Shown: positions 5,651 to 27,349, numbered from the stretch's first letter. The stretch is 38,844 nt of DNA from Patescibacteria group bacterium (GCA_018816485.1 JAHIVL010000061.1:1-38844); one strand, 5' to 3'. Numbers and translations are program-made. Notes: generated from the letters alone by a model not told the origin.

Positions 5651-7984
5651 ATGTACGATGGTGATTTTGTAGCACAACTAGTTTCGATAATAATGACTAT
5701 TATATTTTCTATTCTTTTTATAGCAATATTTGCTGTGTTTATTTATATGTTATTTCAGTGGTTTAAGCATCGAAACAGAGAGAAAATAGCTCTCGAATTT
5801 GTGACCTTGCTTGTAAGAGTGCCCAAAGATAATGAAACAAAAATTGATGCTGCTGAACAACTTTTTGCATCATTTTATACGCTTAAAAAAAATGGCTTTT
5901 TTTCTTGGGCAAAAGCTGAAGATTTATTCTCATTTGAACTAGTTGCTCTTCAAGAAGAAATATCTTTTTATATGAATTGCCCAAAAAGAATTCGAGACTT
6001 GGTAGAAAAGCAAATTCATGGGGCCTATCCTAATGCGGATATAAAAGAGACAGACGAAGTAAACATTTTTAACAAAAAAGGGAAAGTAGCATTTACATCT
6101 ATTAAGCTTGATAAATCAACATTTTTGCCAATAAAAATGTATAAAGATTTGCCAACTGATGGTTTGTCTTTACTAACATCAGCTCTTTCAAAAATGGGCG
6201 CAGGAGAAGGTGCAATTATACAAATTCTTCTTCAGCCAGAATCAAAGAATTGGCAAAAAAAAGGCAGATCTTATATTTCAGCCCAAAAAAAAAGAGAGGC
6301 AGATCCAAAAAATGCCACATATAGCAATGATCCAAAAGAGATGGAGATGATTTCTCAAAAAATTGAAAAACCTGGTTTCAAGGTTTCAGTTAGAATTGTT
6401 GTCTCTGCTCAAAATGAATACACGGCAGATTCTCATCTTAATAATATTGTTGGGGCATTTGCTCAGTATTCCTCTGCTTACAACTCATTTAAAAAACCTA
6501 GAATTATTTTGCTTAAGCAACTTTTTATGATTGATTTTATTTATCGATATATGCCTATTCTGAGATATGGCACTTTTATTTTAAATTCCGAAGAACTTGC
6601 AACAATTTTTCATTTACCAAATAAAACTGTAGAGACTCATCATATTAGATATCTGAATGCAAAAAATGCTCCAGCTCCGCACAATATTCCCAAGACTGGT
6701 TTGTATTTGGGCAAATCTAACTATAGAGGCGAATCGAGAGAAGTTTTCATTGGTGACGATGATAGAAGAAGACATATGTACATCATTGGAAAAACTGGTA
6801 CAGGTAAATCTGAATTTTTAAAAGAAATGATTTTGCAAGATATTGAAAGTGGCAAAGGTGTTTGTGCGATTGATCCGCATGGAGAATTTATTGAAGATAT
6901 TTTAGAGTTGATGCCTCCAGAAAGAGCTGACGACGTTATTTATTTTAATCCTTCTGATTTGAGTAGACCTATGGGTTTGAATATGATGGAAGCTGACAGT
7001 GAAGAACAGAGGCATTTTGTTGTTGGTTCAATCATTGGATTAATGTACAAACTTTATGATCCTCATAGAACTGGAATTATTGGGCCAAGATTTGAGCATG
7101 CTATTAGAAATGCCATGCTTACTATTATGTATAAAAAAGGCAGTACTTTTATAGAGTTGGTGCGTATTTTGACGGACGTTAAATATGTTGACGAGATGCT
7201 ACCTTTGGTTCAAGACCCGGTGGTGAAACGTTACTGGACTGATCAGATTGCCCAAACTTCCGACTTTCATAAATCTGAGGTTTTGGATTATATTGTTTCT
7301 AAATTTGGTCGTTTTGTGACAAACAAAACCATGAGAAATATTATTGGTCAGCCAGAAAGTTCGTTTAATGTTAGACAAGCAATGGATGAGCAAAAAATTA
7401 TTTTGTGCAACCTTTCAAAAGGTGTTTTAGGTGAGGAAGATGCAAAATTTTTAGGCTTGATTCTTGTGCCAAAAGTTTTAACTGCAGCTATGAGTCGTCA
7501 AGATATACCTATGGATCAAAGAAAAGATTTTTTCTTGTATGTCGATGAGTTTCAAAATTATGCGACAGAAGATTTTGCGGTTATTTTGTCTGAGGCTCGT
7601 AAGTATCGACTGAATTTAATTGTTGCTAATCAGTTTGTCAGTCAGATTGACGAAGAAGTTAAGAATGCTGTTTTTGGTAACGTTGGTACAATGGTTTCTT
7701 TTCGAGTTGGTGTGCCTGATGCAAACTTTTTACAACATGAGTATGCACCTGTTTTTAATGAGGTAGACCTAATAAATATTGAAAAATATCACGTTTATGT
7801 CAAAACTATTGTTCAAAATGAGCCAGTACCTCCATTCAGTATGTCATTAGCCAAAGATATGGATGATATTAAGGCTAGAATGAATCCAAAACAGGCAGAA
7901 ATGATCAAGGAGCTTTCGAGATTGAAGTACGGGAAAGATGTCCATGTAGTTGAGGCAGAAATTCAGAGTAGAAGTAATTTATAA
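5651..7984 (+). CDS. membrane-anchored TraD/VirD4/HerA-FtsK-superfamily P-loop ATPase (type IV coupling-protein-like)
   Basis: 777 aa with an N-terminal TM helix. Walker A is IIGKTGTGKS and Walker B is FFLYVDEFQNYA. The ARKYRLNLIVANQ block is typical of TraD/VirD4/TraG-like coupling ATPases. Confidence 0.75.
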   Translation: MYDGDFVAQLVSIIMTIIFSILFIAIFAVFIYMLFQWFKHRNREKIALEFVTLLVRVPKDNETKIDAAEQLFASFYTLKKNGFFSWAKAEDLFSFELVALQEEISFYMNCPKRIRDLVEKQIHGAYPNADIKETDEVNIFNKKGKVAFTSIKLDKSTFLPIKMYKDLPTDGLSLLTSALSKMGAGEGAIIQILLQPESKNWQKKGRSYISAQKKREADPKNATYSNDPKEMEMISQKIEKPGFKVSVRIVVSAQNEYTADSHLNNIVGAFAQYSSAYNSFKKPRIILLKQLFMIDFIYRYMPILRYGTFILNSEELATIFHLPNKTVETHHIRYLNAKNAPAPHNIPKTGLYLGKSNYRGESREVFIGDDDRRRHMYIIGKTGTGKSEFLKEMILQDIESGKGVCAIDPHGEFIEDILELMPPERADDVIYFNPSDLSRPMGLNMMEADSEEQRHFVVGSIIGLMYKLYDPHRTGIIGPRFEHAIRNAMLTIMYKKGSTFIELVRILTDVKYVDEMLPLVQDPVVKRYWTDQIAQTSDFHKSEVLDYIVSKFGRFVTNKTMRNIIGQPESSFNVRQAMDEQKIILCNLSKGVLGEEDAKFLGLILVPKVLTAAMSRQDIPMDQRKDFFLYVDEFQNYATEDFAVILSEARKYRLNLIVANQFVSQIDEEVKNAVFGNVGTMVSFRVGVPDANFLQHEYAPVFNEVDLINIEKYHVYVKTIVQNEPVPPFSMSLAKDMDDIKARMNPKQAEMIKELSRLKYGKDVHVVEAEIQSRSNL

Positions 7985-8389
7985 AATATTGAATCTCTCA
8001 TAATCTTCTACAACCGATTTGCAGTATATATACTGTCCGTATTCTAAGGCTTTTTCGTGAATAGGAGTTGAGTCTTGTGTTGCTTCAATAGGTGACTCAA
8101 GAATTTTTGAGGTTCCTAGTATATTGCTAGCATGTTCTTTTATCTCTTGAGTTCTAGTAGATAATTGTGACATTTCTTCTTCAGCATTTTGAATTGCACT
8201 ATCCAGATTTACATTAATTTTTTCTTTATTAATGTTTTGAGCTTGTTGAGCAATATTTTTTAAAGGAGTTTTGTCTAAAATTTGTAGTGATGAATTAAAC
8301 AGTTTTTGAGTATCTCCAAAATAGTAGAATGTTGTGCCGGCAACAATAATCATAAATAAAATGAAGAGTTTAGTTCTAAAGAAGTTCAT
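7979..8389 (-). CDS. hypothetical N-terminally anchored protein
   Basis: 136-aa ORF with one N-terminal TM (LFILFMIIVAGTTFYYF) followed by a coiled-coil-like region. It is convergent with the ATPase gene and overlaps it by 6 nt. Confidence 0.5.
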   Translation of the reverse strand: MNFFRTKLFILFMIIVAGTTFYYFGDTQKLFNSSLQILDKTPLKNIAQQAQNINKEKINVNLDSAIQNAEEEMSQLSTRTQEIKEHASNILGTSKILESPIEATQDSTPIHEKALEYGQYIYCKSVVEDYERFNIL

Positions 8390-8413
8390 AAAAATAGTAT
8401 ACAGTTTTTTACT

Positions 8414-8484
8414 CTTTAATATTTATATAAAATACTCTCGTCGAAACAAGTTCGAAATGTTCGTATTCCATATAAATATTAAAG
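8414..8484. other. 15-bp perfect inverted repeat (ctttaatatttatat / atataaatattaaag) with a 41-nt spacer that contains a second small hairpin
   Basis: Read directly from the sequence. It sits in the intergenic gap just downstream of the ABC permease stop (minus strand). It could be a terminator or an operator. Confidence 0.35.
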
Positions 8485-8501
8485 AATCAAACTGACCAGT
8501 C

Positions 8502-9710
8502 TTACTCATACCTAAGTGCTTCAATTGGAGAGAGCTTAGACGCTCTTTTAGCTGGTGCCGCTCCAAAGACCAAGCCAACCACGGTAGAAACGCCAAAGGC
8601 TAAAATGACTGCCTGAAGTGTTATTTTCGCTGGGAAATAGATCTGAATAGCCAGTGTTCCGAGGTAAGCTATTAGTAAACCAATTAATCCGCCTAAGACT
8701 GAAAGTACTGCGGCCTCGATTAAGAACTGCATTAAAATTATATTTGGAGTGGCTCCTAAAGCTTTTCTAAGACCAATTTCTCTAGTCCTTTCACTAACGG
8801 AGACTAGCATAATGTTCATGATTCCAATTCCGCCGACAAGTAAAGAAATACTTGAAATTCCTCCAAGCGCAATTGTTAGAACTCCAAGAATACTATTAAT
8901 AGTGTCCAGAATTTCGGATTGATCAAAAACGGAGTATTCGTCTTCATCATATTTTTTTGCCATTTGTTTCTCGATTGCAGAAATGCTTTCTGGAATATTA
9001 TCAGCACTTTTGGTTTTAACAACTATTTCAACAATTTTCTTAGAATCATATTGCTTAAACATGGTTTCTAGAGGAATAAAGATGTATGTATCTAAGCTTG
9101 GACCTCCAAATGAACCACCGGCTTCTTCTTGGACGCCAATCACAGTATAAGTTTGATTGCCAATTTTTACTTTTTTACCAATCGGATCAATGCTTCCGAA
9201 TAATTCTTCTGCAACTTTAAAACCTATGCTTACCACTTTCTTTTTAGAATCATTTTCATTTTTATTAAAAAATCTTCCTTTTGCAATTTTTGTACTTGGC
9301 TGAGCAATAGGGTATTCATGAGTTGAGCCAATCACTGTGACTGATTTATCATTGTTTCTGTAAGAAATATTATCTGTTTGGGTTGTAAATGGAACAACAA
9401 TATCAACAAATTCTCTGATTTTTTGAATTTCTTTTACATCACTCATATCGAGCTTACTATTAGCGAGTGCATTTAATTGGTTCTCTCTGCTAAAGCCCCC
9501 ACCTTCTCCAAAAGGATCACCAGGAAACACTAGAACGGTATTTGCCCCAAGCTCATCAAATTGGTCGGAAATGTAAGCCTGAAGGCCTGTCCCGATTGCT
9601 GTTAGCATTACTACTGAGCCCACTCCAATAATTACACCAAGCATAGTTAAAAATGACCTATATTTGTTGACTAGTATTGCTTTTAGCGCAATTTTGAACG
9701 TATTTAGCAT
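8502..9710 (-). CDS. ABC transporter permease, MacB/FtsX family
   Basis: 402 aa. The architecture is an N-terminal TM, a large extracytoplasmic domain and a C-terminal FtsX-type 3-TM bundle (ERTREIGLRKALGA motif). The start overlaps the ATPase gene stop. Confidence 0.85.
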   Translation of the reverse strand: MLNTFKIALKAILVNKYRSFLTMLGVIIGVGSVVMLTAIGTGLQAYISDQFDELGANTVLVFPGDPFGEGGGFSRENQLNALANSKLDMSDVKEIQKIREFVDIVVPFTTQTDNISYRNNDKSVTVIGSTHEYPIAQPSTKIAKGRFFNKNENDSKKKVVSIGFKVAEELFGSIDPIGKKVKIGNQTYTVIGVQEEAGGSFGGPSLDTYIFIPLETMFKQYDSKKIVEIVVKTKSADNIPESISAIEKQMAKKYDEDEYSVFDQSEILDTINSILGVLTIALGGISSISLLVGGIGIMNIMLVSVSERTREIGLRKALGATPNIILMQFLIEAAVLSVLGGLIGLLIAYLGTLAIQIYFPAKITLQAVILAFGVSTVVGLVFGAAPAKRASKLSPIEALRYE

Positions 9711-10414
9711 TATTTATTCTTTGTTACGGTACGAACTTTTTTAGTTTTAAAATCTTTGATGATTTCACCATCTTTAAAAACAATCTGTCTTTTGGCAAAC
9801 TGGGCAATTTCTTCTTCATGTGTAACCATAACAATAGTTTTACCTTCTTTATGAAGTTTTAATAAGATATCCATAATTTCATCACCAGATTTTGAATCTA
9901 GGTTTCCTGTTGGCTCATCGGCAAAAATTATGGATGGATTGTTGACTAAAGCTCTAGCAATCGCAACTCTTTGCTGTTGTCCACCAGAAAGTTGGGCTGG
10001 AGTGTTGTGTAATCTGTCTCCTAGTCCAACTTTTTCTAAGATTTCTTTAGCTCTTTTCATTTGTTCAGAATGTTTCACTCCAGTATAAACTAGAGGGAGG
10101 GCAACATTCTCGATAGAAGATGTTCTGGCCAACAGATTAAATTGTTGGAAAATAAAACCAATTTCTATGTTTCGGAGTTTTGCTCTTTCAATTTCATTAT
10201 ATAAACTTACCTCTTTATCCTTGAGAAAAATTTGGCCACTTGTTGGTTCGGCCAAGATACTTGCGACTTGTAAAAAAGTTGATTTTCCAGATCCTGACGG
10301 ACCCATTATTGACACAAATTCACCATTTTTAACCTCTATAGATATATTATTTAGAGCTTTAATAAGGTTGTTACCTAGTTGATAATGTTTGGAAACATTT
10401 TTTAGTTTTAGCAT
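9710..10414 (-). CDS. ABC transporter ATP-binding protein (MacB/LolD-type)
   Basis: 234 aa. Walker A is GPSGSGKST, the ABC signature is [14 protein letters not shown] and Walker B is [12 protein letters not shown]. Confidence 0.92.
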
Positions 10415-10436
10415 TTTTTGTAAATTCTCGTGAGTT

Positions 10437-11480
10437 TTATTGTTCTGGAACTACAATTTCATCAGATTCAGTTAGTCCTTCAAGAATTTCTATGATGTCA
10501 TCTGTTTCCAAACCAATTTTTATTTCTCTTTCTTCTGCCTGATTCTCTCCAGTTTTGACATTTACATATGTTTTATCGTTTCTTTGAGTTATTGAAATTG
10601 TTGGAATGGTAAGTACATCATCTTTGGTTTCGAGGACAATATGAATATCACCATTCATACCAATTCTCAGTAAATTGCCATCAGTTGCCTTATTTAAAGG
10701 AAATTCAATAACAAAAGCAGTGCCACTACTTGTCTCAGTACTTACAAAGGAAACATAACTTACAGTTGTTATGATTGTTTCGTTGGGATATGAATCTAAA
10801 ACTAGATTAGCAGTTTGACCCTCAGAAATAAAAGAGATATCAGATTCATCAACTGCGGCTCTAAATATTAGTGATTCTGGGTTGACGATTTCGAAGTAAT
10901 CACTAGCTAAGAGCTGTACTCCAGTAACTGCAGTTGGCGAGCTGGTTAAAATGCCTTCAAATGGGGCGTAAATAGCGGTATTTTTGATTGCTATATCTTG
11001 AATTTCAACATCGATGACAGTGTTATTTAAGTCCCATTGTTCTTTATCTACTGTTCTTTGTTCTGTAGTTTCAAGTGGTCGGTCTTTAATGTCATCAACT
11101 GTTGTTTCCCAATCCCATCGCTCTTTCATGTAGAGATTTAAGTCTTTTTGAAGGGTTTTGGCTAATGAGGCTCCATCAATTGTAGCAATTGTTTGCCATT
11201 TTTTTACAATATCACCTTCTTGGGCGCCTAAATAAACTACTTTTCCGCCTGCAATGAATCTTAAGCGAGCTTTTTGTTTAGCATCGACATGACCAGAAAC
11301 TTCTAGCATTTTAGTAATAGAATCCTTGACTGGATGTTCAAATTTGAGTTGATCATTATTTTTTGTGGCATTTGAGCGAGCTACGAAGACTAATATTAGT
11401 ATGATAACTATGGCAATTATAGAGGAGAGCTTCCATCTTTTCTTAATTTGACTGAGTACTGAATTAAAAATATTTTTCAT
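10437..11480 (-). CDS. efflux transporter periplasmic adaptor subunit (HlyD/MacA family)
   Basis: 347 aa with an N-terminal TM anchor. It has lipoyl/beta-barrel-like segments and is the first gene of the three-gene adaptor-ATPase-permease operon. Confidence 0.7.
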   Translation of the reverse strand: MKNIFNSVLSQIKKRWKLSSIIAIVIILILVFVARSNATKNNDQLKFEHPVKDSITKMLEVSGHVDAKQKARLRFIAGGKVVYLGAQEGDIVKKWQTIATIDGASLAKTLQKDLNLYMKERWDWETTVDDIKDRPLETTEQRTVDKEQWDLNNTVIDVEIQDIAIKNTAIYAPFEGILTSSPTAVTGVQLLASDYFEIVNPESLIFRAAVDESDISFISEGQTANLVLDSYPNETIITTVSYVSFVSTETSSGTAFVIEFPLNKATDGNLLRIGMNGDIHIVLETKDDVLTIPTISITQRNDKTYVNVKTGENQAEEREIKIGLETDDIIEILEGLTESDEIVVPEQ

Positions 11481-11582: not shown

Positions 11583-11655
11583 GAGTCGATAGCTCAGTTG
11601 GTAGAGCGGTAAGCTTATACCTTACTGGTCGGGGGTTCGAGTCCCTCTCGACTCA
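11583..11655 (+). tRNA. tRNA-Ile, anticodon UAU
   Basis: Hand-folded 73-nt cloverleaf. The acceptor is GAGTCGA/TCGACTC, the D arm GCTC-AGTTGGTA-GAGC, and the anticodon arm GTAAG-CTTATAC-CTTAC (positions 34-36 = TAT). The T arm is GGGGG-TTCGAGT-CCCTC and the discriminator is A. No CCA is encoded. Confidence 0.85.
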
Positions 11656-11658
11656 CAT
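11640..11658 (+). repeat. direct repeat copy 1 (tRNA-Ile 3' end, agtccctctcgactcacat)
   Basis: An identical 19-mer recurs at 11777-11795. Confidence 0.9.
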
Positions 11659-11941: not shown

Positions 11942-12118
11942 GTGAAAACAGAAACAATAAAAACATCCGATCTTGAGGTTAACTTGGATATTAAAAGCGT
12001 TGATTGGCAAGAAGTTGCTCAAGACATGCATGTTTTTGTTGAATATATTAGAGCTATTCTTAGAAGTGAACAGAACGTATTAATGTTAGCCTTGTTGGAC
12101 AACATAAAATGTGTATAG
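11942..12118 (+). pseudogene. possible 5' gene fragment (58 codons) truncated at a dispersed repeat
   Basis: GTG start preceded by the Shine-Dalgarno sequence aagagga at 6-nt spacing. The translation (VKTETIKTSDLEVNLDIKSVDWQEVAQDMHVFVEYIRAILRSEQNVLMLALLDNIKCV) looks protein-like. The stop codon lies inside the 52-bp repeat at 12106-12157. This ORF is not in the supplied ORF track. Confidence 0.3.
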
Positions 12119-12363
12119 TAATAGTTTAAAAATGTGCACTTTTCCTTGATCCTAGTAATACTACCAATTACACAAGGATCAAAGCAAACTAAGATTACAA
12201 CTTGTCTACCTCTAAAGCTAAACCAAACCCCATCCAATGCTAGATATCCGGATCTTTTTGGATGAAATATATTATCTATAGTTAAAAACTTTTGTAGTCT
12301 TTCTAGCAAATCGCTAAGTTTTTCATTCCACAAATCTAGATTTCCGTTATAATTTTCCAGCAA
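12019..12363 (-). pseudogene. DDE transposase-like fragment
   Basis: 114-aa ORF. The segment LALDGVWFSFRGRQVVILVCFD has the D-x2-aromatic-x4-G-x9-D spacing seen around the first catalytic Asp of IS6/IS1-type DDE transposases. The ORF is too short for an intact enzyme, its C-terminal third looks non-coding, and a possible N-terminal piece (MNPDQKIKIGGKSPVDI) lies upstream in another frame. Confidence 0.3.
12106..12157 (+). repeat. dispersed 52-bp repeat, copy 1
   Basis: aaaatgtgTatagtaatagtttaaaaatgtgcacttttccttgatcctagta. It matches 32059-32110 with one mismatch, in the same orientation. Confidence 0.9.
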
Positions 12364-12548
12364 TATCTACTGGTGATTTCCCACCAATCTTAATTTTTTG
12401 ATCTGGATTCATATATATTGTCGCTATCTGTTCCAAGAATTAAGATTTTATGTAGCTGTAAGAATCTTTTTTTGAAACTTTCTAAATCATCATAGTTACG
12501 TTATTTAACAAGAGTTAATTCACTTACCTTCAGCCAAAAAATTTACTC

Positions 12549-14066
12549 TTAATCCCTTCCCCGCCAAAAATATAGCTCAAGATACTGCATGCCTATTTTT
12601 TGAATATGGCATAGTTGTCTAAATGCACCATAAGCTTTTTCAGTCATTTTATTTTCTAAATCATGATCTAATAAAACTTTAATAAGTTCATTAGTAGATT
12701 CTTCAACTACCCCTTCTTTAACCACTGGCAAACCAGTTTCCTCCCATGGTTCTAGGTCATCACTATCTCCAACCTGAATGATTCCATTAATGTGACTCAA
12801 TATATCTTTGACTGCCACTGGATAGCCAAACATCATCATGATAATTTTTGCCCAAGCAGCCTCAATAGCCTGGTTGCCCCAACCTTCATGGGTAGGAACA
12901 TAAAGAACACCATCTACAATTCCGCTTTTAATGAAACTATAAAATGAGTGTTTACCAGCCGATTGATCCTCATTAGTATATTGAGCATCTGCCACAATGT
13001 CATCTCCAATAAAAACTAATTTTACGCCCATCTCTTTGGCGTACTCTTTAATTTTTGAATAATATTCACTATCAAAATCAGCCGATTGGATAACTAACAA
13101 AAAAATATTGCTTTCTGAATCAAATGTTTTAGAGCTACGTCCAACTCCATTTTCATGATTCTCTAGCAGCTTTCTTTTATCTTGAATGCTTTTCACGATT
13201 CTTATGGCTGTTTGATAGCCTTTATTTTTTCTAGTTCTGGTTGTAAGTGCCAAAACTAAATCATTTTCTTTAATGCCATATTTTTCTAGTAGCTCTTTTT
13301 TATCTTCTTGTGACATTTCTTCAACTTCTTTGTCAAAGTCGAAACCGTCTGGAATAAAGGTTGATACTACTCCTTTTCGCTTTTTTAATTCTGCTTGAGC
13401 TATAGTATTGATACAAATATGTCGAGTATTTTCAAAGTTTGGTGCTGTAATTTTATTCACAAGCTTGTTAATTTTTTCATATTTACTGACATATTTGGTT
13501 GCATCAGGTCCTTCCCAATAAAAATCATGATGATGTAAAATAAATCTAGTTTCTGGTCGATTTTTAATTACCTCGTGGACGGCAACTGCAGCCTGAATAT
13601 GTAAAAATGGCAAAGCTGAAAGATTTCTAATATGGACTATATCAAGTCTATTTTCATCAATAAATGTAATCATTTGCTGGTAAATAACATCAGCACCATT
13701 GTTAATTTTTGTTAACAGTGCATTTTCTTGTTGATCTAAAGTTTCTTGATCCAGATCTGCCATATCCTGATCTAAAATTTTATCTCTTAAACAAGTAACG
13801 TTTTTATTGTGGTAATCTAGTTCTGGAGAATTTGAACTGATCTCACTTTCTGTAGTATCGGCTGCTAGAGAAAAGGTTTTCGCCCCAAGACTATTTAAAA
13901 ATACTTGAGTTTCTTGTGCTTGTAGAGAAACTCCGTCTGTGCCATATAAAAAGTAGTGTATCTGTCCTATTTGTTTGTCCTTAATTATATTCGACATTTC
14001 TTCTAAAGAAAGTTTCGGTGTCTCAATTATTAATGGTCTTTTTTTAGCTTCTTCTTTTGCAAACAT
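12549..14066 (-). CDS. GT-B fold glycosyltransferase (GT4-like)
   Basis: 505 aa. The C-terminal PTHEGWGNQAIEAAWAK resembles the GT4 E-x7-E nucleotide-sugar binding motif. An HHHDFYWEG block is also present. Confidence 0.55.
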   Translation of the reverse strand: MFAKEEAKKRPLIIETPKLSLEEMSNIIKDKQIGQIHYFLYGTDGVSLQAQETQVFLNSLGAKTFSLAADTTESEISSNSPELDYHNKNVTCLRDKILDQDMADLDQETLDQQENALLTKINNGADVIYQQMITFIDENRLDIVHIRNLSALPFLHIQAAVAVHEVIKNRPETRFILHHHDFYWEGPDATKYVSKYEKINKLVNKITAPNFENTRHICINTIAQAELKKRKGVVSTFIPDGFDFDKEVEEMSQEDKKELLEKYGIKENDLVLALTTRTRKNKGYQTAIRIVKSIQDKRKLLENHENGVGRSSKTFDSESNIFLLVIQSADFDSEYYSKIKEYAKEMGVKLVFIGDDIVADAQYTNEDQSAGKHSFYSFIKSGIVDGVLYVPTHEGWGNQAIEAAWAKIIMMMFGYPVAVKDILSHINGIIQVGDSDDLEPWEETGLPVVKEGVVEESTNELIKVLLDHDLENKMTEKAYGAFRQLCHIQKIGMQYLELYFWRGRD

Positions 14067-14144
14067 GATACGTGGGTTACTATCAAAATAGTTTTAATTT
14101 TATATTGTATATCAAATATGTGAATTCTAAAGCAGTTGTATAGA

Positions 14145-14255
14145 TCACTCACATTTTGGAATATTACTTTTTAAAAAATTGATAGGCGACACATAGTTTA
14201 GTGAAGTGTGTGGTCTTCTGTAGTTATACCAATTTAAGTACTCTAATCCATAACT
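14145..14255 (-). pseudogene. C-terminal remnant of an rve-type (IS3/IS481-like) integrase/transposase
   Basis: The translation LEYLNWYNYRRPHTSLNYVSPINFL matches the conserved tail of the integrase core domain (YN..RPH.SL....P..F). No catalytic region lies upstream, and the rest of the 62-aa ORF overlaps the end of the LPXTG gene. Confidence 0.6.
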
Positions 14256-14272
14256 AGGCATTCTTAATATAT

Positions 14273-16330
14273 TTAAAGTAGTAGGAATAATGCTGTGCCG
14301 ACACCTAGTGTCACTAAGCCTGCCTTTAGCCAATTAAGCCAGTCTTCAGGACCAGTTTGTGGAAGAGTAGGTGGTAATTCCGGTTGAACTTGTGCTAATG
14401 GAACCGTACATGTGACAGAGTCAGGGTAGCTTTCTAATCTACATCTATTTGATCCATCAGCTGTTGTTAGACAGATATGACTACTGTTTGAACAGTCTGC
14501 ATTAGTCACACAAATTTCATTACAGCCTGGAGTTGGAGTGGAAGTAGGCGTAGACGTTGGAGTCGAAGTAGGTGTAGGAGTAGGAGTTGGCGTTGGCGTT
14601 GGCGTTGTAGCTGGAGAACAACTAGTGCTAGAAAGATTAGATTCTAGTCTGCAAACTTGATTATCTCCTGATTCATAACAAACGTAATCTTCACTAACTG
14701 TTTGACAGTTTGCATTGGTTTCACAAGCTTCGTTACAAGCATATTCTTCTTCCTCTTCAAAGATTGCTAGTGGTAATTCACATACATGAGAGGTGTCGTT
14801 GTCAGTAGTTACTGTAGCGACATTATTTAAGGTTTCTACAGTAGGGTTAGCAACGACCTGGACTTTAAATTCTATCGTTCTTACGTCAGTATCTTCAATT
14901 ACACCGTAATCTATGGTCACTCTTCTTGTAGTTGCATTGTATGTAATGCCATCAGTATTTTCGGCATCTTCAACAAAGATTAAACCTTCAGGGAGTTGAT
15001 CTACAACTATTACGTCTCCTGTTGTAGTTCCATTAGCATTGACAGAAACTCTGTAGACAAATTCTTGGCCTGGTTGAACTTCTGCATTAGCTAATATTTC
15101 TGTACCATCAAAGTCAGTGAATGCCTGCTTTTCAATACATTGAGCAGTTCCATGAGGTAGGATTGAGTGATTAACCTCACAGATACTACCAGTATCTAAT
15201 GGTTCTTTTTGTAAAGATTGAGGAGGGAAAATGTAGACGAGAGCACTATTAGTAAATTTGCCTAATTCTGGTTGATCAATTACTTTGACAACAAATCCGA
15301 GAGTTACTGTTTCATCTTCCAAGACTCCAAAGTTTACAAATATCGTGTTATCTCCAGCGTCATTAGATATATATTGTTCGCTAGAAGCTAAAGCTCTAAC
15401 AAATTCAAAATTATCTGGAATTAAGTCATAGAGCTTAACTTCACCATTCGTTTTGTTGGTTGCATCAACAGTAAGGTAATAAACGTATTCTTCACCTATA
15501 GTAAGAGCACTTCCAGCAGGCACAATTTCAGAAGCTGATTCAGCTGGGTCACCGGTATAAAGTTGTTTGCTCGTACATTCAGCAGTACCTGCTAGAATAT
15601 TAAATTGATATTGACAGGTTGATTTTGAATCAGCATTGTTATTTGTTGTTACTGTTGCAGAGTTAATAACTAATTGATCTGGAGCGGAAATAACTTCTAC
15701 CATAAACTCAACTTTGATTGTTTCATTTTTGGTCATGCCATCTAAATTAAGAGTAACAATATCCATATGTCCGCCATCCATATATCGAACTGTTAGTCCA
15801 GGTGTGTTACTAGAGTTTTCTACGAATTTTAAACTTTGTGGCAAAACATCAACAATCTCAACTGCGCCTTGAGTATCTTCAGGTGAAGATACAGTTAGAC
15901 TAAAGACAAGTTGATCACCAATATTAAACATACCTGGTTCAACTATTACTTTGATGGGCTTGGTAATTGCTTTGGCAGAGAAATCATCTTGAGCAATTTT
16001 GCTTTCGCAAATTGCATTTCCTTTTGGAACAGTGAAACTTGTTGCGCAGTAATTGTTGTTATCAGTAGTTGCGCTTGGTCTTGATGCTGGAGCATTAGGT
16101 GCTACTGGCGTAGTTTCTTCACCTTTTTGAGTTACTTGTTTTTGAGAAATGAAAACACCAGTCAATGCGACAACTATGAAGAAAATTATTCCAACAATAG
16201 CAAAAATATTTTTGAAATTATTTTTCTTTTTCGGAGTTGGGTTATTTTTGACCATATTAACATTACTACCAACACCAGTACTAGGAATTTTGGTATAAAA
16301 AGCTTGTGGTTGTGTGTTAGTGTTTTCCAT
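14273..16330 (-). CDS. LPXTG-type sortase-anchored surface protein with DUF11-like repeats, two 6-Cys modules and a PT linker
   Basis: 685 aa with an N-terminal signal-anchor TM. Three ~125-aa repeats carry D-LP-x-L-FV motifs (VDVLPQSLKFVENS, LYDLIPDNFEFVRA, VVDQLPEGLIFVED). The linker is TPTPTPTPTPTPTSTPTSTPTSTPTP. The C-terminus is LPQTG followed by a hydrophobic tail. Confidence 0.85.
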   Translation of the reverse strand: MENTNTQPQAFYTKIPSTGVGSNVNMVKNNPTPKKKNNFKNIFAIVGIIFFIVVALTGVFISQKQVTQKGEETTPVAPNAPASRPSATTDNNNYCATSFTVPKGNAICESKIAQDDFSAKAITKPIKVIVEPGMFNIGDQLVFSLTVSSPEDTQGAVEIVDVLPQSLKFVENSSNTPGLTVRYMDGGHMDIVTLNLDGMTKNETIKVEFMVEVISAPDQLVINSATVTTNNNADSKSTCQYQFNILAGTAECTSKQLYTGDPAESASEIVPAGSALTIGEEYVYYLTVDATNKTNGEVKLYDLIPDNFEFVRALASSEQYISNDAGDNTIFVNFGVLEDETVTLGFVVKVIDQPELGKFTNSALVYIFPPQSLQKEPLDTGSICEVNHSILPHGTAQCIEKQAFTDFDGTEILANAEVQPGQEFVYRVSVNANGTTTGDVIVVDQLPEGLIFVEDAENTDGITYNATTRRVTIDYGVIEDTDVRTIEFKVQVVANPTVETLNNVATVTTDNDTSHVCELPLAIFEEEEEYACNEACETNANCQTVSEDYVCYESGDNQVCRLESNLSSTSCSPATTPTPTPTPTPTPTSTPTSTPTSTPTPGCNEICVTNADCSNSSHICLTTADGSNRCRLESYPDSVTCTVPLAQVQPELPPTLPQTGPEDWLNWLKAGLVTLGVGTALFLLL

Positions 16331-16336
16331 TTTTAT

Positions 16337-18127
16337 TTAAATTTCTCTTGGTGCAACTGGTATCCAATCTTGACATGAGGTGCCAGTACATACTCTGCAT
16401 TGTACGGTGTGATTTAAGTACTGATTGATTTGATAGTTGAGTGAGATTGCAGACAATCCAGCTGGGTTAATTGCACTGCCTTGGACTATTGTTCCATTTG
16501 GCTCGGTTATTTTAAATTCGTAATTAATTTTATAGCCGCCCGGATTATCAGCAGCACATCTGAATTTGAGCACCATTCCAATTGAGAATGGATCAACTTT
16601 GGGATCGAGTTCATTATTATTTGCATCTAAAATTGCAACATCTTTACACATTAATTCTTCTACGACATCTGGTTTACAAGTTGTGGAGGTTGGATTTGAA
16701 ATTAATCTACATCTTTTATCATCACTGTTTACTGGACGTGTGCAGGACCATGCTGGATTAACAGCAGAACATTGAATATCTGTAGTGCAAATACTATTAC
16801 ACGTTAGTTCTACAACATCTTCCTCACAAGTTGTGGAGGTTGGATTTGAAATTAATCTACATCTTTTATCATCACTGTTTACTGGACGTGTGCAGGACCA
16901 TGCTGGATTAACAGCAGAACATTGAATATCTGTAGTACAAATACTATTGCATGCATACGTTGGTATCGGTGTCGAAGTTGGTGTAGATGTTGGAGTCGAA
17001 GTTGGTGTTGGAGTTGGAGTTCCGCCTGGACAACATCCATCACTCTGTACGCAGCAAATATAATCAGGAACACAGCAGGTCATTGCTTCTCCGTGCATAT
17101 TAACACACCATTCTCGATTAGAATCTTCACATATATCCTTGGTTGTTCCTGGGTCTTCACATTTAGCTATTGTACAGGCATCTCCATCTTGACAGTGACA
17201 AACCAGAGGTGGGGTACATTTGAGGCCGTCAAAACTACATGCATCGCCAACTTGACCCCCTCCATCTACACACTTCCCATCTACACATGTTTGACTTCCA
17301 GGATAAGGGCATGGAATCGTGTTGGAGCAAGTAGGCAGATCCAAGCATCCTTCGACATAGTTACAGTATTGATGGGCTAGACAACCTCCACAATCCTCAA
17401 CACAATTTCCATTTACCGGACCGTAGCCAGATTTACAAATACAAAGACCATTAACGCATTGCTCATTTGCACCGCATTTCTTATGCGTACATATATCACC
17501 TACATAGGCCTGCTGTCTTAAATCCTGATTTTGTTGTGACAAGAAAAACCCAGCTCCTGCGCCTACCACTATTAGTAGTAGAACAAATACGCCAGCAATT
17601 ACTTTTATGTTAAATTTCTTTTTTGGTTTAAGTCCATCATGTCTATCATCAAACCCCGGTGGTTTTTCCATAGCCGGTGGTGTGGTTGCTACCATAGCAG
17701 GTGTCAAAGCAGGCGATACCGATGAAGTCATAGCCGGTGGTGTGGTTGCTACCATAGCCGGTGTCAAAGCAGGCGATACCGATGTAGCCATAGCCGGTGG
17801 TGTGGTTGCTACCATAGCCGGTGTCAAAGCAGGCGATACCGATGGAGTCATAGTGGGTGGTTTTTTGGCAACAGTGTCTAAGGGGATATTCGCTGTAATA
17901 GGTAACTTAGGACCAAGGGATGCATTTGGAGTAGCTGACAATTGTTTATCAGAAGCTATTTTAGCCATAATATCTATATTATCTTTGGTAGATTCTTGAG
18001 GTGAAATTAGTGTTTCAATAACTTTAGAAGTTCCATCATTCACAGAAATATTTTTTGCTACAGTTGAAGCAAGGTTTGGTTCTGGGTTTGTATTTTGTGA
18101 TTTATTGTCGTTTGTAGCGTTGATCAT
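16337..18127 (-). CDS. single-pass membrane protein with an extremely Cys-rich ectodomain, PT linker and duplicated 6-Cys module
   Basis: 596 aa. The N-terminal region holds a 3x 20-aa repeat (TPSVSPALTPAMVATTPPAM), followed by the TM VIAGVFVLLLIVVGAGAGFFL. By my count there are about 28 Cys in ~165 residues. After the TPTPTPTSTPTSTPTSTP linker, CNSICTTDIQCSAVNPAWSCTRPVNSDDKRCRLISNPTSTTC occurs twice. Confidence 0.85.
   Translation of the reverse strand: MINATNDNKSQNTNPEPNLASTVAKNISVNDGTSKVIETLISPQESTKDNIDIMAKIASDKQLSATPNASLGPKLPITANIPLDTVAKKPPTMTPSVSPALTPAMVATTPPAMATSVSPALTPAMVATTPPAMTSSVSPALTPAMVATTPPAMEKPPGFDDRHDGLKPKKKFNIKVIAGVFVLLLIVVGAGAGFFLSQQNQDLRQQAYVGDICTHKKCGANEQCVNGLCICKSGYGPVNGNCVEDCGGCLAHQYCNYVEGCLDLPTCSNTIPCPYPGSQTCVDGKCVDGGGQVGDACSFDGLKCTPPLVCHCQDGDACTIAKCEDPGTTKDICEDSNREWCVNMHGEAMTCCVPDYICCVQSDGCCPGGTPTPTPTSTPTSTPTSTPIPTYACNSICTTDIQCSAVNPAWSCTRPVNSDDKRCRLISNPTSTTCEEDVVELTCNSICTTDIQCSAVNPAWSCTRPVNSDDKRCRLISNPTSTTCKPDVVEELMCKDVAILDANNNELDPKVDPFSIGMVLKFRCAADNPGGYKINYEFKITEPNGTIVQGSAINPAGLSAISLNYQINQYLNHTVQCRVCTGTSCQDWIPVAPREI
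16658..16950 (-). repeat. 2 x 150-bp near-identical in-frame tandem repeat (encodes the duplicated 6-Cys module)
   Basis: The stretch from 16676 is repeated from 16826 with near-perfect identity. The period is 150 nt (50 codons). Confidence 0.9.
17668..17847 (-). repeat. 3 x 60-bp in-frame tandem repeat
   Basis: catagccggtggtgtggttgctaccatagc[a/c]ggtgtcaaagcaggcgataccgatg... starts at 17668, 17728 and 17788. It encodes the 20-aa Pro/Thr/Ala repeat. Confidence 0.9.
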
Positions 18128-18226
18128 TTTGTATTCGCATTATCTTCGTAATAACAAAAATAAGTATTATAATACGTGTACTTAACAGGATACAAACATT
18201 ATCTATGTCAAGTCAATACCGAGTTT

Positions 18227-19555
18227 TTAATCATCTAAAATTGGCTTTATTCCTGGCAACATTTTTCCGCTCAGTAAATCTAGCGCAGCTCCTCCTGCGG
18301 CAGAGACATAACTAAACTGTTTTTCCAGTCCAAAATGGTTGACTGCGCCAATTGTATCTCCACCACCGATAATTGTTTCAGCGCCCGACAATGCAACGGC
18401 TGCCGCGATTTTTCTAGTTCCTTTTGTGAAAATTGGATTTTCCCAAACTCCCATAGGACCATTCCAAAAGACTGTATTGGCCTGTTCAATTATTTTTTGA
18501 TAAAGCTTGATTGTTTTTGGACCGATATCTAAATAGAGTAGTTTTTTGTTTATTTTACCCGCACCATCAAGAGTGCTGTCATTTTCAACTGTCAAATCTA
18601 TTATAATAGTTTTTTCAGAGTTAGTCTCTTCAAGAGAGTGGGCAGCAACTACATCAATGGGATATAAGATTTTATCCATTGGAATATACCCATTCATCAA
18701 CATTTTTTCGGTTTTATGTTTTTCAATCAGTGAATAAGCAAAATCAACATAATTGATATTTTTCTTTTTCAAATCAACAGGGGCGTCTTCTATATATGAT
18801 TTATAAGTATTAAAACCATCTGCTTTTAGGAAACTATTTGCAACAGCTCCACCAACTAAAACGATATCTGCGATTTTTGCTAAGTGTTCTATAGCTCCAA
18901 CTTTGTCAGAAATTTTTGCACCACCCAAAACAATTACAAGTGGTCGTTTGGGTTCACTCATCATTTTTGCGAAAGTACTCACTTCTTTTTCAAGAGCAAA
19001 CCCCGCAAATGCGGGTAAATGCTTTGTAATACCAACTATAGAAGCGTGAGATCTGTGAGTTGTAGAAAAAGCTTCATTTATATAGATGTCCATATGTTGA
19101 GCCAGTGTCTTTGAAAATACTGCATCATTCTCTTCTTCTTCTTTGTGGAAACGTAAGTTTTCTAGTAGGAAGATTTTAGACTCAGATTCATTCAGAGCTT
19201 TTTCAATTTTTTCTCCAATACAAGCATTAATAAACTGAACTGGCAAGCTCAAGTTTTCTCTCATGTACTTGGCAACTGGTTCTAAGCTTAAGTGCAAATC
19301 GGAACTAGATTCTGGTCTTCCTAGGTGCGATGCTAAAACTACGGTGGCATCATGTTTTAGAAGAAAGTTAATAGTTTCGAGCGAGGCTTTTATTCTTTCG
19401 TCATTCACAACAACAACTTTTTTATTGCCAACAGCATCAACTTCTGTTTCTAGTGGAACATTATAGTCAACTCTTACAAACACTGTTTTATTTTTAATAT
19501 CCGAAATCTTAGGGAGTTTTAGTTTCATAAGTTTCAAATTATCATACATTTTCAT
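18227..19555 (-). CDS. pgk: phosphoglycerate kinase
   Basis: 442 aa. The N-terminal VRVDYNVPL motif and the C-terminal GGGDT / SAAGGAALDLL blocks are typical of PGK. Confidence 0.92.
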   Translation of the reverse strand: MKMYDNLKLMKLKLPKISDIKNKTVFVRVDYNVPLETEVDAVGNKKVVVVNDERIKASLETINFLLKHDATVVLASHLGRPESSSDLHLSLEPVAKYMRENLSLPVQFINACIGEKIEKALNESESKIFLLENLRFHKEEEENDAVFSKTLAQHMDIYINEAFSTTHRSHASIVGITKHLPAFAGFALEKEVSTFAKMMSEPKRPLVIVLGGAKISDKVGAIEHLAKIADIVLVGGAVANSFLKADGFNTYKSYIEDAPVDLKKKNINYVDFAYSLIEKHKTEKMLMNGYIPMDKILYPIDVVAAHSLEETNSEKTIIIDLTVENDSTLDGAGKINKKLLYLDIGPKTIKLYQKIIEQANTVFWNGPMGVWENPIFTKGTRKIAAAVALSGAETIIGGGDTIGAVNHFGLEKQFSYVSAAGGAALDLLSGKMLPGIKPILDD

Positions 19556-22842: not shown

Positions 22843-22916
22843 GGGCCCTTAGCTCAGCTGGTCAGAGTGCTTCATTTGCAATGAAGAGGTCAAGGGTTCG
22901 ACTCCCTTAGGGTCCA
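22843..22916 (+). tRNA. tRNA-Ala, anticodon UGC
   Basis: Hand-folded 74-nt cloverleaf. The acceptor GGGCCCT/AGGGTCC contains the G3:U70 alanine identity pair. The anticodon arm is CTTCA-TTTGCAA-TGAAG and the T arm is AAGGG-TTCGACT-CCCTT. Confidence 0.9.
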
Positions 22917-25590
22917 CATCTAAGAGGTCGATCTAATATTTAATTCTGAATTTTAAAACCGAATATTCGCGTTCTTTAAATAAAAAAAATAAATGTTTTA
23001 AAAGCGAACGCTTTCGAGCTTGTCTCGATGAGAGCTTTTAAAACAATTATTTTTGATTAGAAAATCAGAATAAAATTGGTTATTAAATATTAGTTCTTTG
23101 GTTTTACCTCACCAGGTCTTACTGAGAACTAACATTTAGCAACTAATTATTGCTGAAAAATGGATTTGTTGACTAAGTTAACATTTTCGACAAGGTAGTT
23201 AATACGGCAGGACTCTCAAGTTGTAAAAACCGTATATAAACCTAAATCCTTGAGATCTGGAATGAAAACAACAAAATTGTTTGTGATTGCCGACATGGCG
23301 ACTAATAACAAGTTTTCAGAAAAGAGTTGATCTTTAACAAGTGAAGAAAACTGTCATGTATAGGTCAAAATGATGATTTAATCATCAGTGGCCATGCATC
23401 TTTTTAAAATTTCAATAAAAAATTGTACTAAACTGTGCGGCAACGCACTAAATTGTACAAACATTTCGTCTTGAAATTACAAAAAAAAACAAATGCTACA
23501 AGTCGAGACTACGCAAGTAGTTTCGCATGCTAAAGTCTATTTACACAAGTGCAAACTCGTGTTTATAGCAAGCTTATAGAAATATAATAGCGATATATAA
23601 ATGAAAATTTATGTGAATTAATGCAGATAGTGGATGCCTAGGCTTATCTGGCCGATGAAGGACGCTAACCCCGCGAAAGTGGTTGGGTAACTGGGAAAAA
23701 GTTATGATCCAGCCGTGTCCGAATTGAGAAATCACGCTACGTGAGAGCGTAGTGGCCCTAATTTTTTAAATTAGGTGGGTAACCTCCCGAACTGAAATAT
23801 CTAAGTAGGGAGAGGAAAAGAAAACGTAAGAGATTCCCCGAGTAAGCGACGAGCGAAAAGGGACTAGTCCAAACCCGGAATTTATTCCGGGGGTTGTAGG
23901 ACCTCAACATTTGACTTTAAAAGATAGAAGAACACTTTGGAATAAGTGATCAAAGAGGGTGATAATCCCGTAAGCAAAATCTAATAAAGCGATAGAGGAT
24001 TCCTGAGTAGGTTGGGAGACGGCAAACTCCCTTCTGAATCTGGGGTGACCACACTCCAAGACTAAATACCAGATAAGACCGATAGTGAACGAGTACCGTG
24101 AGGGAAAGGTGAAAAGAAGGGTTGAAGACCCCGTGAAATAGAACCTGAAACCATCTGCTAACAATCAGACAAAGCACATTTATTGTGTGATGTCGTGCCT
24201 ATTGAAGAATGAGCCGGCGAGTATTTGACAACTGCTTCAGGTTAAGACATTTCGTGTCGAAGCCGTAGTGAAAGCGAGCGTGAATAGCGCGAATCTGTAG
24301 TTGTTGAATGACCCGAAACCGGGTGAGCTTACCATGACCAGGATGAAGCCCTGATAATATCGGGGTGGAGGTCCGCACCGGTGTATGCTGCAAGATGCTC
24401 GGATGAGTTGTGGTAAGAGGTAATATGCCAATCGAACCCGGAGATAGCTGGTTCTCCCTGAAATATATTTAAGTATAGGGTTACGTGAAGTTGCGGGGGG
24501 GTAGAGCACTGATCTGGTGTCTTGGGCGAAAGCCTAAGCGCTTAGTCAAACTCCGAATACCCCGTAATGTTTCGTAGCACTCAGCACCTGGGAGCTAAGT
24601 TCCAGGAGCAAAAGGAAAACAAACCAGACCTACAGCTAAGGTCTCAAATTACATATTTAGTGGCGAAAGAAGTGTTATTCCTAACACACCTAGGAGGTCG
24701 GCTCAGAAGCAGCCATCCTTTAAAGAAAGCGTAACAGCTCACTAGCCGAGGAATAATGCGCTGAAAATCCAACGAGGCTCAAATATGTAACCGAAGCTTA
24801 GGGTTCTAGTGTCAGATTTATTTGATATTGGAGCGGTAAGGGAGCGTTCTGTGTGCTTTGAAGCCAGCCCGTGAGGAGCTGGTGGAGCGATCAGAAGTGA
24901 GAATGCCGGCATGAGTAGCGAAATTGGGGTGAGAATCCCCGACTCCGAATGACCAAGGTTTCCGCACCCACGTTCGTCGTGTGCGGGTTAGGCGACCCTA
25001 AGGTGAGCCCTCGTTAATGAGGGGTAGCCGATGGATTACTGGTTAATATTCCAGTCCTTGGTTAGGATCATTTGACTTGGGGAGGGACGGTGATGGATAA
25101 CATGTGAGCAGCGGTGAATGTTGCTTCAAAGCACTAAAGCAGTCTGGATAGGAAAATCCGTTCAGGCGTTTATCTGAGGTGTGATAGGGCTCTGATTCCT
25201 TTTGGAAGACGAGTTACATGCGATTTCATTATCCTGGAAAAGCTTCGCAAGGAGATTCTAATCAAATCGTACCGATAACCGACACAGGTAGTCAGGTCGA
25301 GTAGACTAAGGAGAGCGAGAGAAAATAGTTTAAGGAACTCGGCAAAACAGCTGGGCGTAATTTCGAGAGATGCCCTCCTCTTTATAGCAATGTAAAGAGG
25401 CGCAGTGAATGTCATGAGGTTGACTGTTTACCAAAAACACAGGTCTGTGCAAACTCGTAAGAGGAAGTATACGGGCTGAAGCCTGCCCAGTGCCGGAAGG
25501 TTAATTGAGGGGGTTTTGTCTAATTTATTAGATAAGGCCTCTGATCGAAGCCCCGGTGAACGGCAGCAGTAACTATAACTGTTCTATGGT

Positions 25591-26301
25591 AGGAAAGCTG
25601 CCTTAGTAAAACTCAACTATATGCTGGAAACCCTGAGAATCTTGATCTACTCATTAAAATATGGTATATATTTACCATAAATGAGTGAAAATGATCCAAG
25701 TGCAGACAATCAGCAGGGAAGACTTGAATTCGCTAGTTGGATAATTGGTTTTGTTGATGGAGAAGGATGTTTTTCAGTCAGTATTTTTCGTAATAGAACG
25801 AGCAAATTTGGTTGGCAGGTAATGCCAGAATTTGTGATAACTCAATCTGAAAGAGACCTAGATGTTCTTAAAGACATCAAAGCTTTTTTCGGTTGTGGAA
25901 ATATCTTCGTAAATCGAAGATATGATAATCACAAACGTAATTTATATCGCTTCTGTGTACGCAAACGTTCTGATTTGACAAACGTAATCATTCCATTTTT
26001 CAATCAATATCCATTACTGACCAAGAAACATTTAGATTTTATTACTTTCAAAAAAGTAGTAAATATGATGAATAAAAAGCAACATTTTCAAACAAAAGGT
26101 TTGAATAAAATTGCTAAATTGGTTGGTAAAAATCTAGAACGAAATCAAGAACCCTCAGAGACTATACGTTGAGCTCAATTATTTAATTGAGAAGATATAG
26201 TCCGATCTCATAGGCGACTATGAGGATCTTTAAATACAAGCGTCGAAGATCATAAAAACAAAGCGTACAATTACTAAATATTTATTTAGTATTTGTTTAT
26301 G
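25591..26301 (+). mobile_element. group I intron 1 in 23S (about E. coli position 1931) carrying a LAGLIDADG ORF
   Basis: The exon junction restores ..CTATGGT|AGCGAAGTTCCTTGTC. The intron follows a U and ends in G. A P7-like gatatagtcc core lies downstream of the ORF. Confidence 0.8.
25681..26172 (+). CDS. LAGLIDADG homing endonuclease (single-motif type)
   Basis: 163 aa. The motif WIIGFVDGEGCFSV is a LAGLIDADG motif. The ORF lies entirely inside intron 1. Confidence 0.88.
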   Translation: MSENDPSADNQQGRLEFASWIIGFVDGEGCFSVSIFRNRTSKFGWQVMPEFVITQSERDLDVLKDIKAFFGCGNIFVNRRYDNHKRNLYRFCVRKRSDLTNVIIPFFNQYPLLTKKHLDFITFKKVVNMMNKKQHFQTKGLNKIAKLVGKNLERNQEPSETIR

Positions 26302-27256: not shown

Positions 27257-27303
<47 letters not shown>

Positions 27304-27349
27304 AGTCTGTTCGCCTATTAAAGCGGTACGCGAGCTGGGTTCAGACCGT

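Follow-up and report, generated by a model that had tools for sequence, protein, structure and literature searches.

Two adjacent genes, designated A and B, on the minus strand of a 38,844-nucleotide (nt) stretch of DNA from a Patescibacteria group bacterium encode a conserved pair of cell-envelope proteins. The whole stretch is called the window below, and all coordinates are counted from its first letter. The organism is an uncultured groundwater bacterium of the Microgenomates group within the candidate phyla radiation (CPR). B represents a novel form of the LPXTG-anchored surface proteins with isopeptide stalks, and A is its conserved membrane-anchored partner. Both proteins contain copies of a small module with six cysteines, which belongs to a domain family not described before and so far seen in CPR genomes only. 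We consider it fairly probable that B is a stalk anchored to the wall by a sortase-type signal, that A is its partner in the membrane, and that the modules serve as rigid spacers.

Gene pair and its source

14273-16330, minus strand: gene B, open reading frame (ORF) of 685 residues, LPQTG-terminated stalk protein with 19 Cys
16337-18127, minus strand: gene A, ORF of 596 residues, membrane-anchored Cys-rich partner protein with 45 Cys
18128-18226, minus strand: gap of 99 nt between the PGK gene and gene A, with promoter-like hexamers (consensus matches only)

The TAA stop codon of A is followed by ATAAAA and then by the ATG of B, leaving a gap of 6 nt. An earlier note on this DNA had described a pair of minus-strand genes six nucleotides apart, and the ORF positions bear this out; the pair is tight and conserved in synteny. 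The same note called the products giant, which was overstated for proteins of 596 and 685 residues. No terminator-like sites were found in a scan of positions 13900-18400, which included the regions between and after the two genes. Hydropathy analysis gave one N-terminal segment of transmembrane (TM) type in each protein (A 175-196, B 42-63), matching the anchors described in the note, and the linkers rich in Pro-Thr or Thr-Ser (PT/TS) that it mentions are present as well (A 367-391, B 572-601). Homology searches returned 24 homologues of A, the best named one being from Candidatus Woesebacteria, and 11 of B with identity up to 72%. The naming of the homologues and the 41 related loci described below agree with the previous assignment of the DNA to a CPR bacterium. 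The stretch is also present in groundwater and biofilm metagenomes.

Protein B and its stalk domains

16142-16207, minus strand: B 42-63, N-terminal hydrophobic signal or anchor (hydropathy)
16028-16102, minus strand: B 77-101, APNAPxSxPxA motif and then the strand YCATSFTV with the probable lone Cys95 (alignment)
15593-16018, minus strand: B 105-246, CLIPPER/DUF11 domain 1, triad K111/D161/N223 (Pfam, alignment)
15158-15586, minus strand: B 249-391, CLIPPER/DUF11 domain 2, triad K255/D302/N361 (Pfam, alignment)
14759-15148, minus strand: B 395-524, CLIPPER/DUF11 domain 3, triad K401/D444/N503 (Pfam, alignment)
14618-14737, minus strand: B 532-571, six-Cys module 1 (module profile)
14528-14617, minus strand: B 572-601, PT/TS linker (sequence inspection)
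14408-14524, minus strand: B 603-641, six-Cys module 2, short-loop "SN..H[IV]C" subtype (module profile)
14276-14386, minus strand: B 649-685, sorting cassette QPELPPTLPQTG-PEDWLNWLKAGLVTLGVGTALFLLL, without basic tail (alignment)

The three DUF11-like repeats previously read from the sequence of B correspond to three stretches matched by Pfam DUF11 (PF01345) with an E-value of 1.2e-22 and 80.8 bits against a cut-off of 24.6. TIGR01451 matched B as well, with 50.1 bits against a cut-off of 24. DUF11 has been renamed CLIPPER, a CnaA-like domain in which an intramolecular Lys-Asn isopeptide bond was established by crystallography and biophysics, and which fibrillar adhesins typically carry in their stalks (PMC12617251). 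In an alignment of 19 CLIPPER domains, taken from B and from its homologues, no columns were invariant except a Cys, a Lys, an Asp, an Asn and another Cys, and the Lys/Asp/Asn isopeptide triad is thus kept in 19 of 19. A profile of these domains, searched against PDB, found 9IFR, a CLIPPER domain solved from a fibrillar adhesin of Acinetobacter (PMC12617251), with an E-value of 5e-7, and the GhpA grappling-hook protein with 4e-14. The profile was needed for both matches, as whole B gave none when searched against PDB by phmmer.

In the alignment with 9IFR the Asp of the DxLP motif corresponds to the Asp of DTL in 9IFR, and the invariant Asn to the residue counted as Asn806. The Lys lies on the first strand in both, and its equivalence would follow from this position and not from the alignment. 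In contrast to 9IFR, each domain of B has two invariant Cys, one placed three residues ahead of the Lys and one on the last strand, together with about 13 extra residues after the first strand. Disulfides beside the isopeptide bond were reported for about 30% of CLIPPER domains (PMC12617251). Judged from its residues, each CLIPPER domain of B would be able to lock itself by a Lys-Asn isopeptide bond. The motif APNAPxSxPxA, found after the TM segment of B (B 77-87, window 16070-16102), recurs in 58 of 119 LPXTG module proteins and is often followed by a strand of the form C-x-[LT]-x-F-x-[IV]; it could be a lineage-specific processing or sorting signal.

Sorting signal

LPQTG occupies residues 656-660 of B, 25 residues from the end, and is followed by a hydrophobic segment (667-685) with a mean Kyte-Doolittle value of 1.79. 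The protein ends in GTALFLLL with no K or R after the hydrophobic stretch, in accordance with the description given before. With TIGR01167, B scored 11.8 bits, which is below the cut-off of 15.9 (E 0.31). The ending LPx[TSA]G was observed in 119 of the 171 module-family proteins inspected, its core being almost invariant, and 116 of these 119 have no K or R in the last eight residues. The segment behind the motif, GPEDWxNWLKAGLVTLGxGAxLLLLL, is strongly conserved, far more than a generic hydrophobic tail. Ordinary basic tails occur in a few relatives, namely P0053, P0071 and P0158. The missing basic tail and the sub-threshold TIGR01167 score indicate that this is a lineage-specific variant of the LPXTG signal, one which breaks the basic-tail rule of sortase substrates. 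Processing of B by a sortase would be in line with the published reports that sortase is "near ubiquitous in Microgenomates" (PMC6744442) and that a closed Microgenomates genome encodes one (PMC7143001); on these reports the refutation by a missing sortase that the earlier note allowed for would not apply.

Six-cysteine module

The module is 39-42 residues long, with six Cys. As the earlier note had counted, there are two in each protein, at A 393-434 and 443-484 and at B 532-571 and 603-641. A profile was built from 76 copies, in which all six Cys were invariant, with the consensus xxCNxxCxTNAQCxxxNxxxxC...CRLxxNPxSxTC. The six-Cys pattern first drawn for it is real, but two of its loops had to be redefined, as C3 and C4 are separated by 6-8 residues and not 6-7, and C4 and C5 by 8-10 and not 7-8. 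Among 1.84 billion proteins the profile matched 500 representatives at E ≤ 1e-3, and still 197 at the stricter limit of 1e-10, far more than chance would give, so that the family extends to about 500 clusters at 50% identity. The profile search and a genome scan had both been proposed beforehand; the scan, made with the C-terminal cassette, returned loci in CPR genomes only. Up to nine copies per protein were found in the profile search, and the homologues carry from one to at least seven.

A single module copy was predicted by AlphaFold2 with a mean pLDDT (predicted local distance difference test) of 93.3, as a short helix followed by a beta-hairpin. Pfam and NCBIfam searches gave nothing significant for the modules, within whole proteins or in isolation, even at E ≤ 10. 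The module profile had no significant match among PDB sequences (best E 0.17). The structure comparison, likewise recommended in advance, was made by Foldseek with this model against PDB and gave nothing at E ≤ 0.001 (best E 4.3); the structures listed were knottin toxins, all insignificant. The module was thus rightly said to be unrecognisable as a named domain. An entirely novel fold is nevertheless not established, because there is a faint, sub-threshold similarity to carboxypeptidase-inhibitor knottins, which we treat as a possible lead only.

A module lies close upstream of LPxTG, ending at a median distance of 20 residues from it, in 116 of the 119 LPXTG members; in 97 of these members it is of the same short-loop SN..H[IV]C subtype as module 2 of B. 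This fixed position indicates that module and sorting signal form one composite C-terminal cassette. Pfam domains found together with the module in 84 proteins were mostly DUF11 (27), bMG10 (13) and DUF7927 (7). We infer that the module is more likely a rigid bead spacing the chain beside the anchor than a catalytic or ligand-binding domain; the variable number of copies, possibly also between populations, is the behaviour of a spacer repeat and fits this role. There is also a second class of proteins (P0102, P0129, P0131, P0137, P0141 and P0145-P0171) with three modules, i.e., 18 Cys, and without LPXTG. These have a long C-terminal tail ending in the conserved motif SSM[LV][ED]R[IL]K[QE]KGI.PP, and one of them gave a weak PASTA match.

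Protein A

17606-18127, minus strand: A 1-174, long N-terminal region of low complexity ahead of the TM segment, presumably cytoplasmic (sequence inspection)
17504-17605, minus strand: A 175-208, TM segment (175-196) and juxtamembrane motif SQQxQDLRQQA (hydropathy, alignment)
17030-17491, minus strand: A 213-366, Cys-rich block with 28 Cys (Cys positions)
16955-17029, minus strand: A 367-391, PT/TS linker (sequence inspection)
16826-16951, minus strand: A 393-434, six-Cys module copy 1 (the sequence modelled by AlphaFold2, pLDDT 93.3)
16676-16801, minus strand: A 443-484, six-Cys module copy 2, tandem duplicate of copy 1
16340-16669, minus strand: A 487-596, C-terminal all-beta immunoglobulin (Ig)-like domain with five invariant Cys (alignment, AlphaFold2 pLDDT 76.7)

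Cysteine makes up 7.6% of the residues of A. The 45 Cys are divided between the Cys-rich block (28), the two modules (12) and the C-terminal domain (5). Exactly 28 Cys were counted in the block, as had been estimated, while its description as EGF-like rests on a sub-threshold match to the Pfam EB module (PF01683; 20.6 bits, below the cut-off of 24.3). Against PDB sequences the block found a single chain at a sub-threshold E-value of 0.07. The C-terminal domain had been described as beta-rich, and AlphaFold2 does predict it as all-beta. Its five Cys are kept in 14 of 15 homologues, and Foldseek gave only generic Ig and FnIII sandwiches for it, at E ≥ 0.02.

Homologues of A keep the N-terminus MINATNDNK. 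This N-terminus, the TM segment and QDLRQQA are common to proteins that occupy the same position in related loci and have quite different ectodomains. The motif SQQxQDLRQQA (A 197-208, window 17504-17539) could represent a lineage-specific processing or sorting signal. Within the presumed cytoplasmic region there are three tandem repeats of 60 nt (17668-17872), 89-95% identical to each other, which encode 20-residue units PAMTxSVSPALTPAMVATTP; the guanine plus cytosine fraction is 0.445 here and about 0.34 in the neighbouring stretches.

The two modules of A are a 150-nt tandem duplication; their DNA is 95% identical, and the encoded copies do not differ at all (100%). In the part equivalent to 16675-16826, a contig assembled from a different groundwater run skips exactly 150 nt, one module of A. 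This could be a copy-number polymorphism or a collapse of the repeat in assembly. One relative, P0005 (731 residues), joins the N-terminus, TM segment and Cys block of the A type to the last module and LPQTG tail of the B type. Domains have therefore been shuffled between the A and B families, and one protein can have both the N-terminal anchor of the A type and a sortase-type signal.

Genomic context

Related loci were collected from a species-representative genome set through the C-terminal cassette of the module, with eight closer sequences as queries. All 41 loci found were in CPR bins, classified as Woesebacteria, Pacebacteria, Microgenomates or "Patescibacteria group"; several of the bins are labelled Pseudomonadales and bear PATE isolate names. 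The recurring order was an S1 gene pointing away, then PGK, A, B, in some loci a third LPXTG protein (C), a membrane fusion protein (MFP), an ABC ATPase, an FtsX permease and a small protein, all in the same direction. A and B were always adjacent. Even in five distant loci that have no PGK neighbour (L031, L034, L036, L041 and L042), module/LPXTG proteins lie directly upstream of the MFP-ABC-FtsX genes.

In the window the corresponding set, encoding a HlyD-like MFP, an ABC ATPase, a MacB/FtsX-type permease and a 136-residue protein, is located on the minus strand at 7979-11480. It was observed downstream of surface genes in about 29 of the 41 loci (L003-L042), even where the upstream context differs, and the MFP-ABC-FtsX genes may help to export or mature the surface proteins. 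Gene C, the third LPXTG module protein found at this position in close relatives, is absent from the window. A strain-specific insert lies between B and the MFP gene (12019-14333). It contains a 505-residue ORF (12549-14066), for which there was no Pfam match and no counterpart in the 41 loci and in which a GT-B-like EGWGN...EA motif was noticed by eye, a 114-residue ORF, and a fragment of an rve integrase core (14145-14333) overlapping the 3' end of B.

Cysteine parity and a possible covalent link

In about 16 of the 19 loci with a pair, the Cys count was odd in both the A-type partner and B, with totals from 13 to 63, while the number in gene C was even in four of four. Among the LPXTG members, reduced to representatives at 50% identity, 92 had odd and 27 had even counts (binomial p 1.7e-9, only indicative, since the sequences are related), and in the class with the Ig-like C-terminus the counts were 15 odd and one even. 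In B-type proteins with n CLIPPER domains the Cys outside the modules number 2n+1. The additional Cys of B is probably Cys95, the simplest candidate, in the N-terminal strand YCATSFTV. This strand mimics the Cys-bearing last strand of the CLIPPER domains (CQYQFNI, CEVNHSI and CELPLAI).

With a single Cys apparently left over in each partner, a disulfide between the two chains suggests itself. By this explanation A and B would make a covalent complex through one such bond, which could tie the membrane (A) to the wall (B) or form the tip of a two-component fibril, and the pair would have to do with envelope architecture more than with host binding. Besides the odd numbers kept in both families, the 2n+1 pattern of B, the five invariant Cys in the end domain of A and the constant adjacency of the genes speak for it. 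However, parity names no partner, and the lone Cys could be free, paired between two B molecules, or modified; nor are the counts fully independent of each other. We regard this explanation as possible but rather doubtful. The same tentative standing applies to its more specific form, where the orphan Cys95 strand of B would dock on the end domain of A and bond with one of its five Cys, giving a disulfide-locked fibril of two proteins from the membrane (A) to the wall (B, through the tail-less LPXTG, which a CPR sortase would read). If true, it would be an A-B assembly, spanning the envelope or forming a tip, of a kind undescribed in any bacterium.

Other features of the window

The gene for 23S rRNA (23607-28037) has a length of 4,431 nt compared with a model of 2,925 positions, and the excess implies insertions of about 1.5 kb. 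A LAGLIDADG homing-endonuclease ORF of 163 residues (25681-26172) is situated in one of them. The 5S gene is found at 28260-28376 and tRNA-Ala at 22843-22917. No 16S gene is present upstream of the 23S gene, where there are protein-coding ORFs and the tRNA-Ala; the rRNA operon thus appears to be split. ARAGORN detected an uncommon tRNA-Ile with the anticodon TAT (UAU) at 11583-11656. In most bacteria AUA is read by a lysidine-modified CAU tRNA. The region 33140-36128 encodes a DUF234/ATPase_2 protein that ends in an Mrr-like nuclease and, after a 206-residue ORF, an AbiEii nucleotidyltransferase toxin; these may be defence or toxin-antitoxin genes.

Discussion

In the reading we prefer, B would be exported by its N-terminal secretion signal or anchor and would expose three CnaA-like isopeptide CLIPPER domains, each with a cysteine pair. 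After this stalk would come the two six-Cys modules, split by the PT linker, and then the LPQTG signal, presumably cut by a housekeeping sortase that links B to peptidoglycan. A would be held by its N-terminal TM segment and would show its 28-Cys block, two modules and Ig-like end domain on the surface. The module itself would fold on its own, probably with three disulfides, into a rigid protease-resistant spacer bead, and one subtype of it would be a fixed part of the anchoring cassette, some 20 residues ahead of LPxTG, at the point where the protein passes through the wall. The disulfides would be formed by an oxidoreductase of the MdbA/VKOR type; an MdbA-like thiol-disulfide oxidoreductase, often beside VKOR, is enriched in CPR (PMC6744442). 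Adhesion to a host, for which the earlier note named A and B as prime candidates, would be a plausible role of the pair.

Several observations weigh against this reading. An obvious AxA cleavage site is absent from the N-terminal hydrophobic segments of both proteins, and B could stay anchored at both ends. Its sorting signal falls under the TIGR01167 cut-off, and the canonical basic tail is missing from nearly all LPXTG members. A search by TLxTC-type motif expressions and by clustering of 587 neighbouring ORFs of the 41 loci revealed a sortase gene neither in the window nor at up to 10 kb from any related locus, and no Dsb or VKOR gene was found in the same regions. A ligand-binding domain was not recognised in the pair, the end domain of A resembling only generic sandwiches. 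The spacer role of the modules is deduced from nothing else than their position and variable copy number. Finally, no RNA or protein expression data turned up for A or B.

Some of the same facts could be explained differently. The LPQTG and tail of B might not be a sortase signal at all; they could simply anchor the C-terminus in the membrane, or be addressed to another sorting enzyme, one specific to the lineage. The lack of basic residues in the last eight positions of almost all members, the weak TIGR01167 score and the unusually conserved GPEDW segment would fit this. We judge it improbable in view of the almost invariant LPx[TSA]G core, the ordinary basic tails of P0053, P0071 and P0158, and the near ubiquity of sortase in Microgenomates (PMC6744442). 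Somewhat harder to accept is B as a pilin subunit, polymerised by a pilus-specific sortase into a covalent pilus of the Gram-positive type with A as an accessory protein. B does combine CnaA-like isopeptide domains with LPXTG, the fimbrial isopeptide domain TIGR04226 matched it weakly (E 1.4e-6, 29.2 bits, cut-off 30), and one module-bearing relative matched a GBS104-like tip-pilin Ig domain. Pilus operons, however, normally bear their own class C sortase, and none was seen near these loci; the YPK pilin motif occurs in neither protein, and A has no LPXTG.

To the idea that the modules act as tethered inhibitors of proteases, akin to the knottin of the potato carboxypeptidase inhibitor or to pacifastin, and shield the surface or act on a host, we give very little credence. 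It derives from the best PDB sequence matches of the module profile, which were metallocarboxypeptidase inhibitors (E 0.17-0.22) with the common start CNxxCxTxxDC, and from Pfam CarbpepA_inh (PF02977), which scored sub-threshold on module 2 of B (E 0.67, 10.2 bits, cut-off 25), somewhat better on three relatives (E 3.4e-4, 0.041 and 0.062; 20.8, 14.1 and 13.5 bits), and 1.5e-8 on one of 84 relatives, which was not pinned down among 20 candidates tried. The likeness to the potato inhibitor consists of six Cys in about 40 residues, the start C-N-x-x-C-x-T-x-x-D-C and the spacing C-x3-C-x5-C. The later loops of the module are longer (x6-8, x8-10 and x10 versus x5, x2 and x6), and its CRL and NPxSxTC motifs are not in the plant protein. 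The potato inhibitor blocks its protease by inserting a free C-terminal tail into the active site, whereas all four modules of the window are internal repeats, followed by linkers or further domains, and have no such tail. All PF02977 scores on these modules are sub-threshold, and Foldseek returned no inhibitor structure at a useful score. As for pacifastin, six-Cys domains like it were reported from Woesebacteria and related CPR groups in a 2026 structural survey, where they were detected by structure only (PMC13388995). A pacifastin-like domain (PF05375) was rejected for the module, with no Pfam match at E ≤ 10 and a Cys1-Cys2 loop of 3 residues, where pacifastin has 9-12 or more (PMC13388995). 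The accessions in the supplement of that survey did not overlap with the few module-protein accessions retrieved.

The preferred arrangement, with B as a wall-anchored stalk and A as its membrane partner, can be compared with several known systems. Gram-positive LPXTG fibrillar adhesins of the MSCRAMM type, with CnaA/CnaB stalks, likewise have a secretion signal, tandem Ig-like isopeptide domains, a Pro/Thr-rich wall-spanning segment, and a C-terminal LPXTG with hydrophobic segment. B differs from them by its conserved GPEDWxNWLKAGL segment in place of a basic tail, by the six-Cys beads between stalk and anchor, by having no recognisable ligand-binding head, and by its CPR host. The MdbA/VKOR-dependent pilins of Actinobacteria (Actinomyces oris FimA, Corynebacterium) are similar in belonging to monoderm bacteria, in depending on sortase and in having extracytoplasmic disulfides. 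Here, in contrast, the density of Cys is much higher (45 in A), no pilus sortase is nearby, and B has no pilin motif. DUF4215 (PF13948), which we take to be a relative of the Myxococcus Cys-rich repeat, had no match on the window proteins. The dense disulfide content predicted for A and B was earlier thought unusual for bacterial surface proteins; this was overstated, as it is nothing new in CPR, where Cys-rich extracellular proteins, proposed to act in attachment, are already reported in Peribacteria (PMC4736985). Those proteins are also from CPR, exported, very Cys-rich and strain-variable; they differ in being much larger, about 1,655 residues on average, and in their weak similarity to the Myxococcus repeat (PMC4736985).

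A large part of bacterial diversity belongs to the CPR or Patescibacteria, which seem to live in attachment to other cells, and almost nothing is known of their surface proteins beyond type IV pili. The locus described here defines a surface cassette of two or three genes, a new domain family, a sorting signal without the basic tail, and an odd-cysteine signature that predicts a covalent partner. Its module, small and very confidently predicted, could also serve as a stable protein scaffold.

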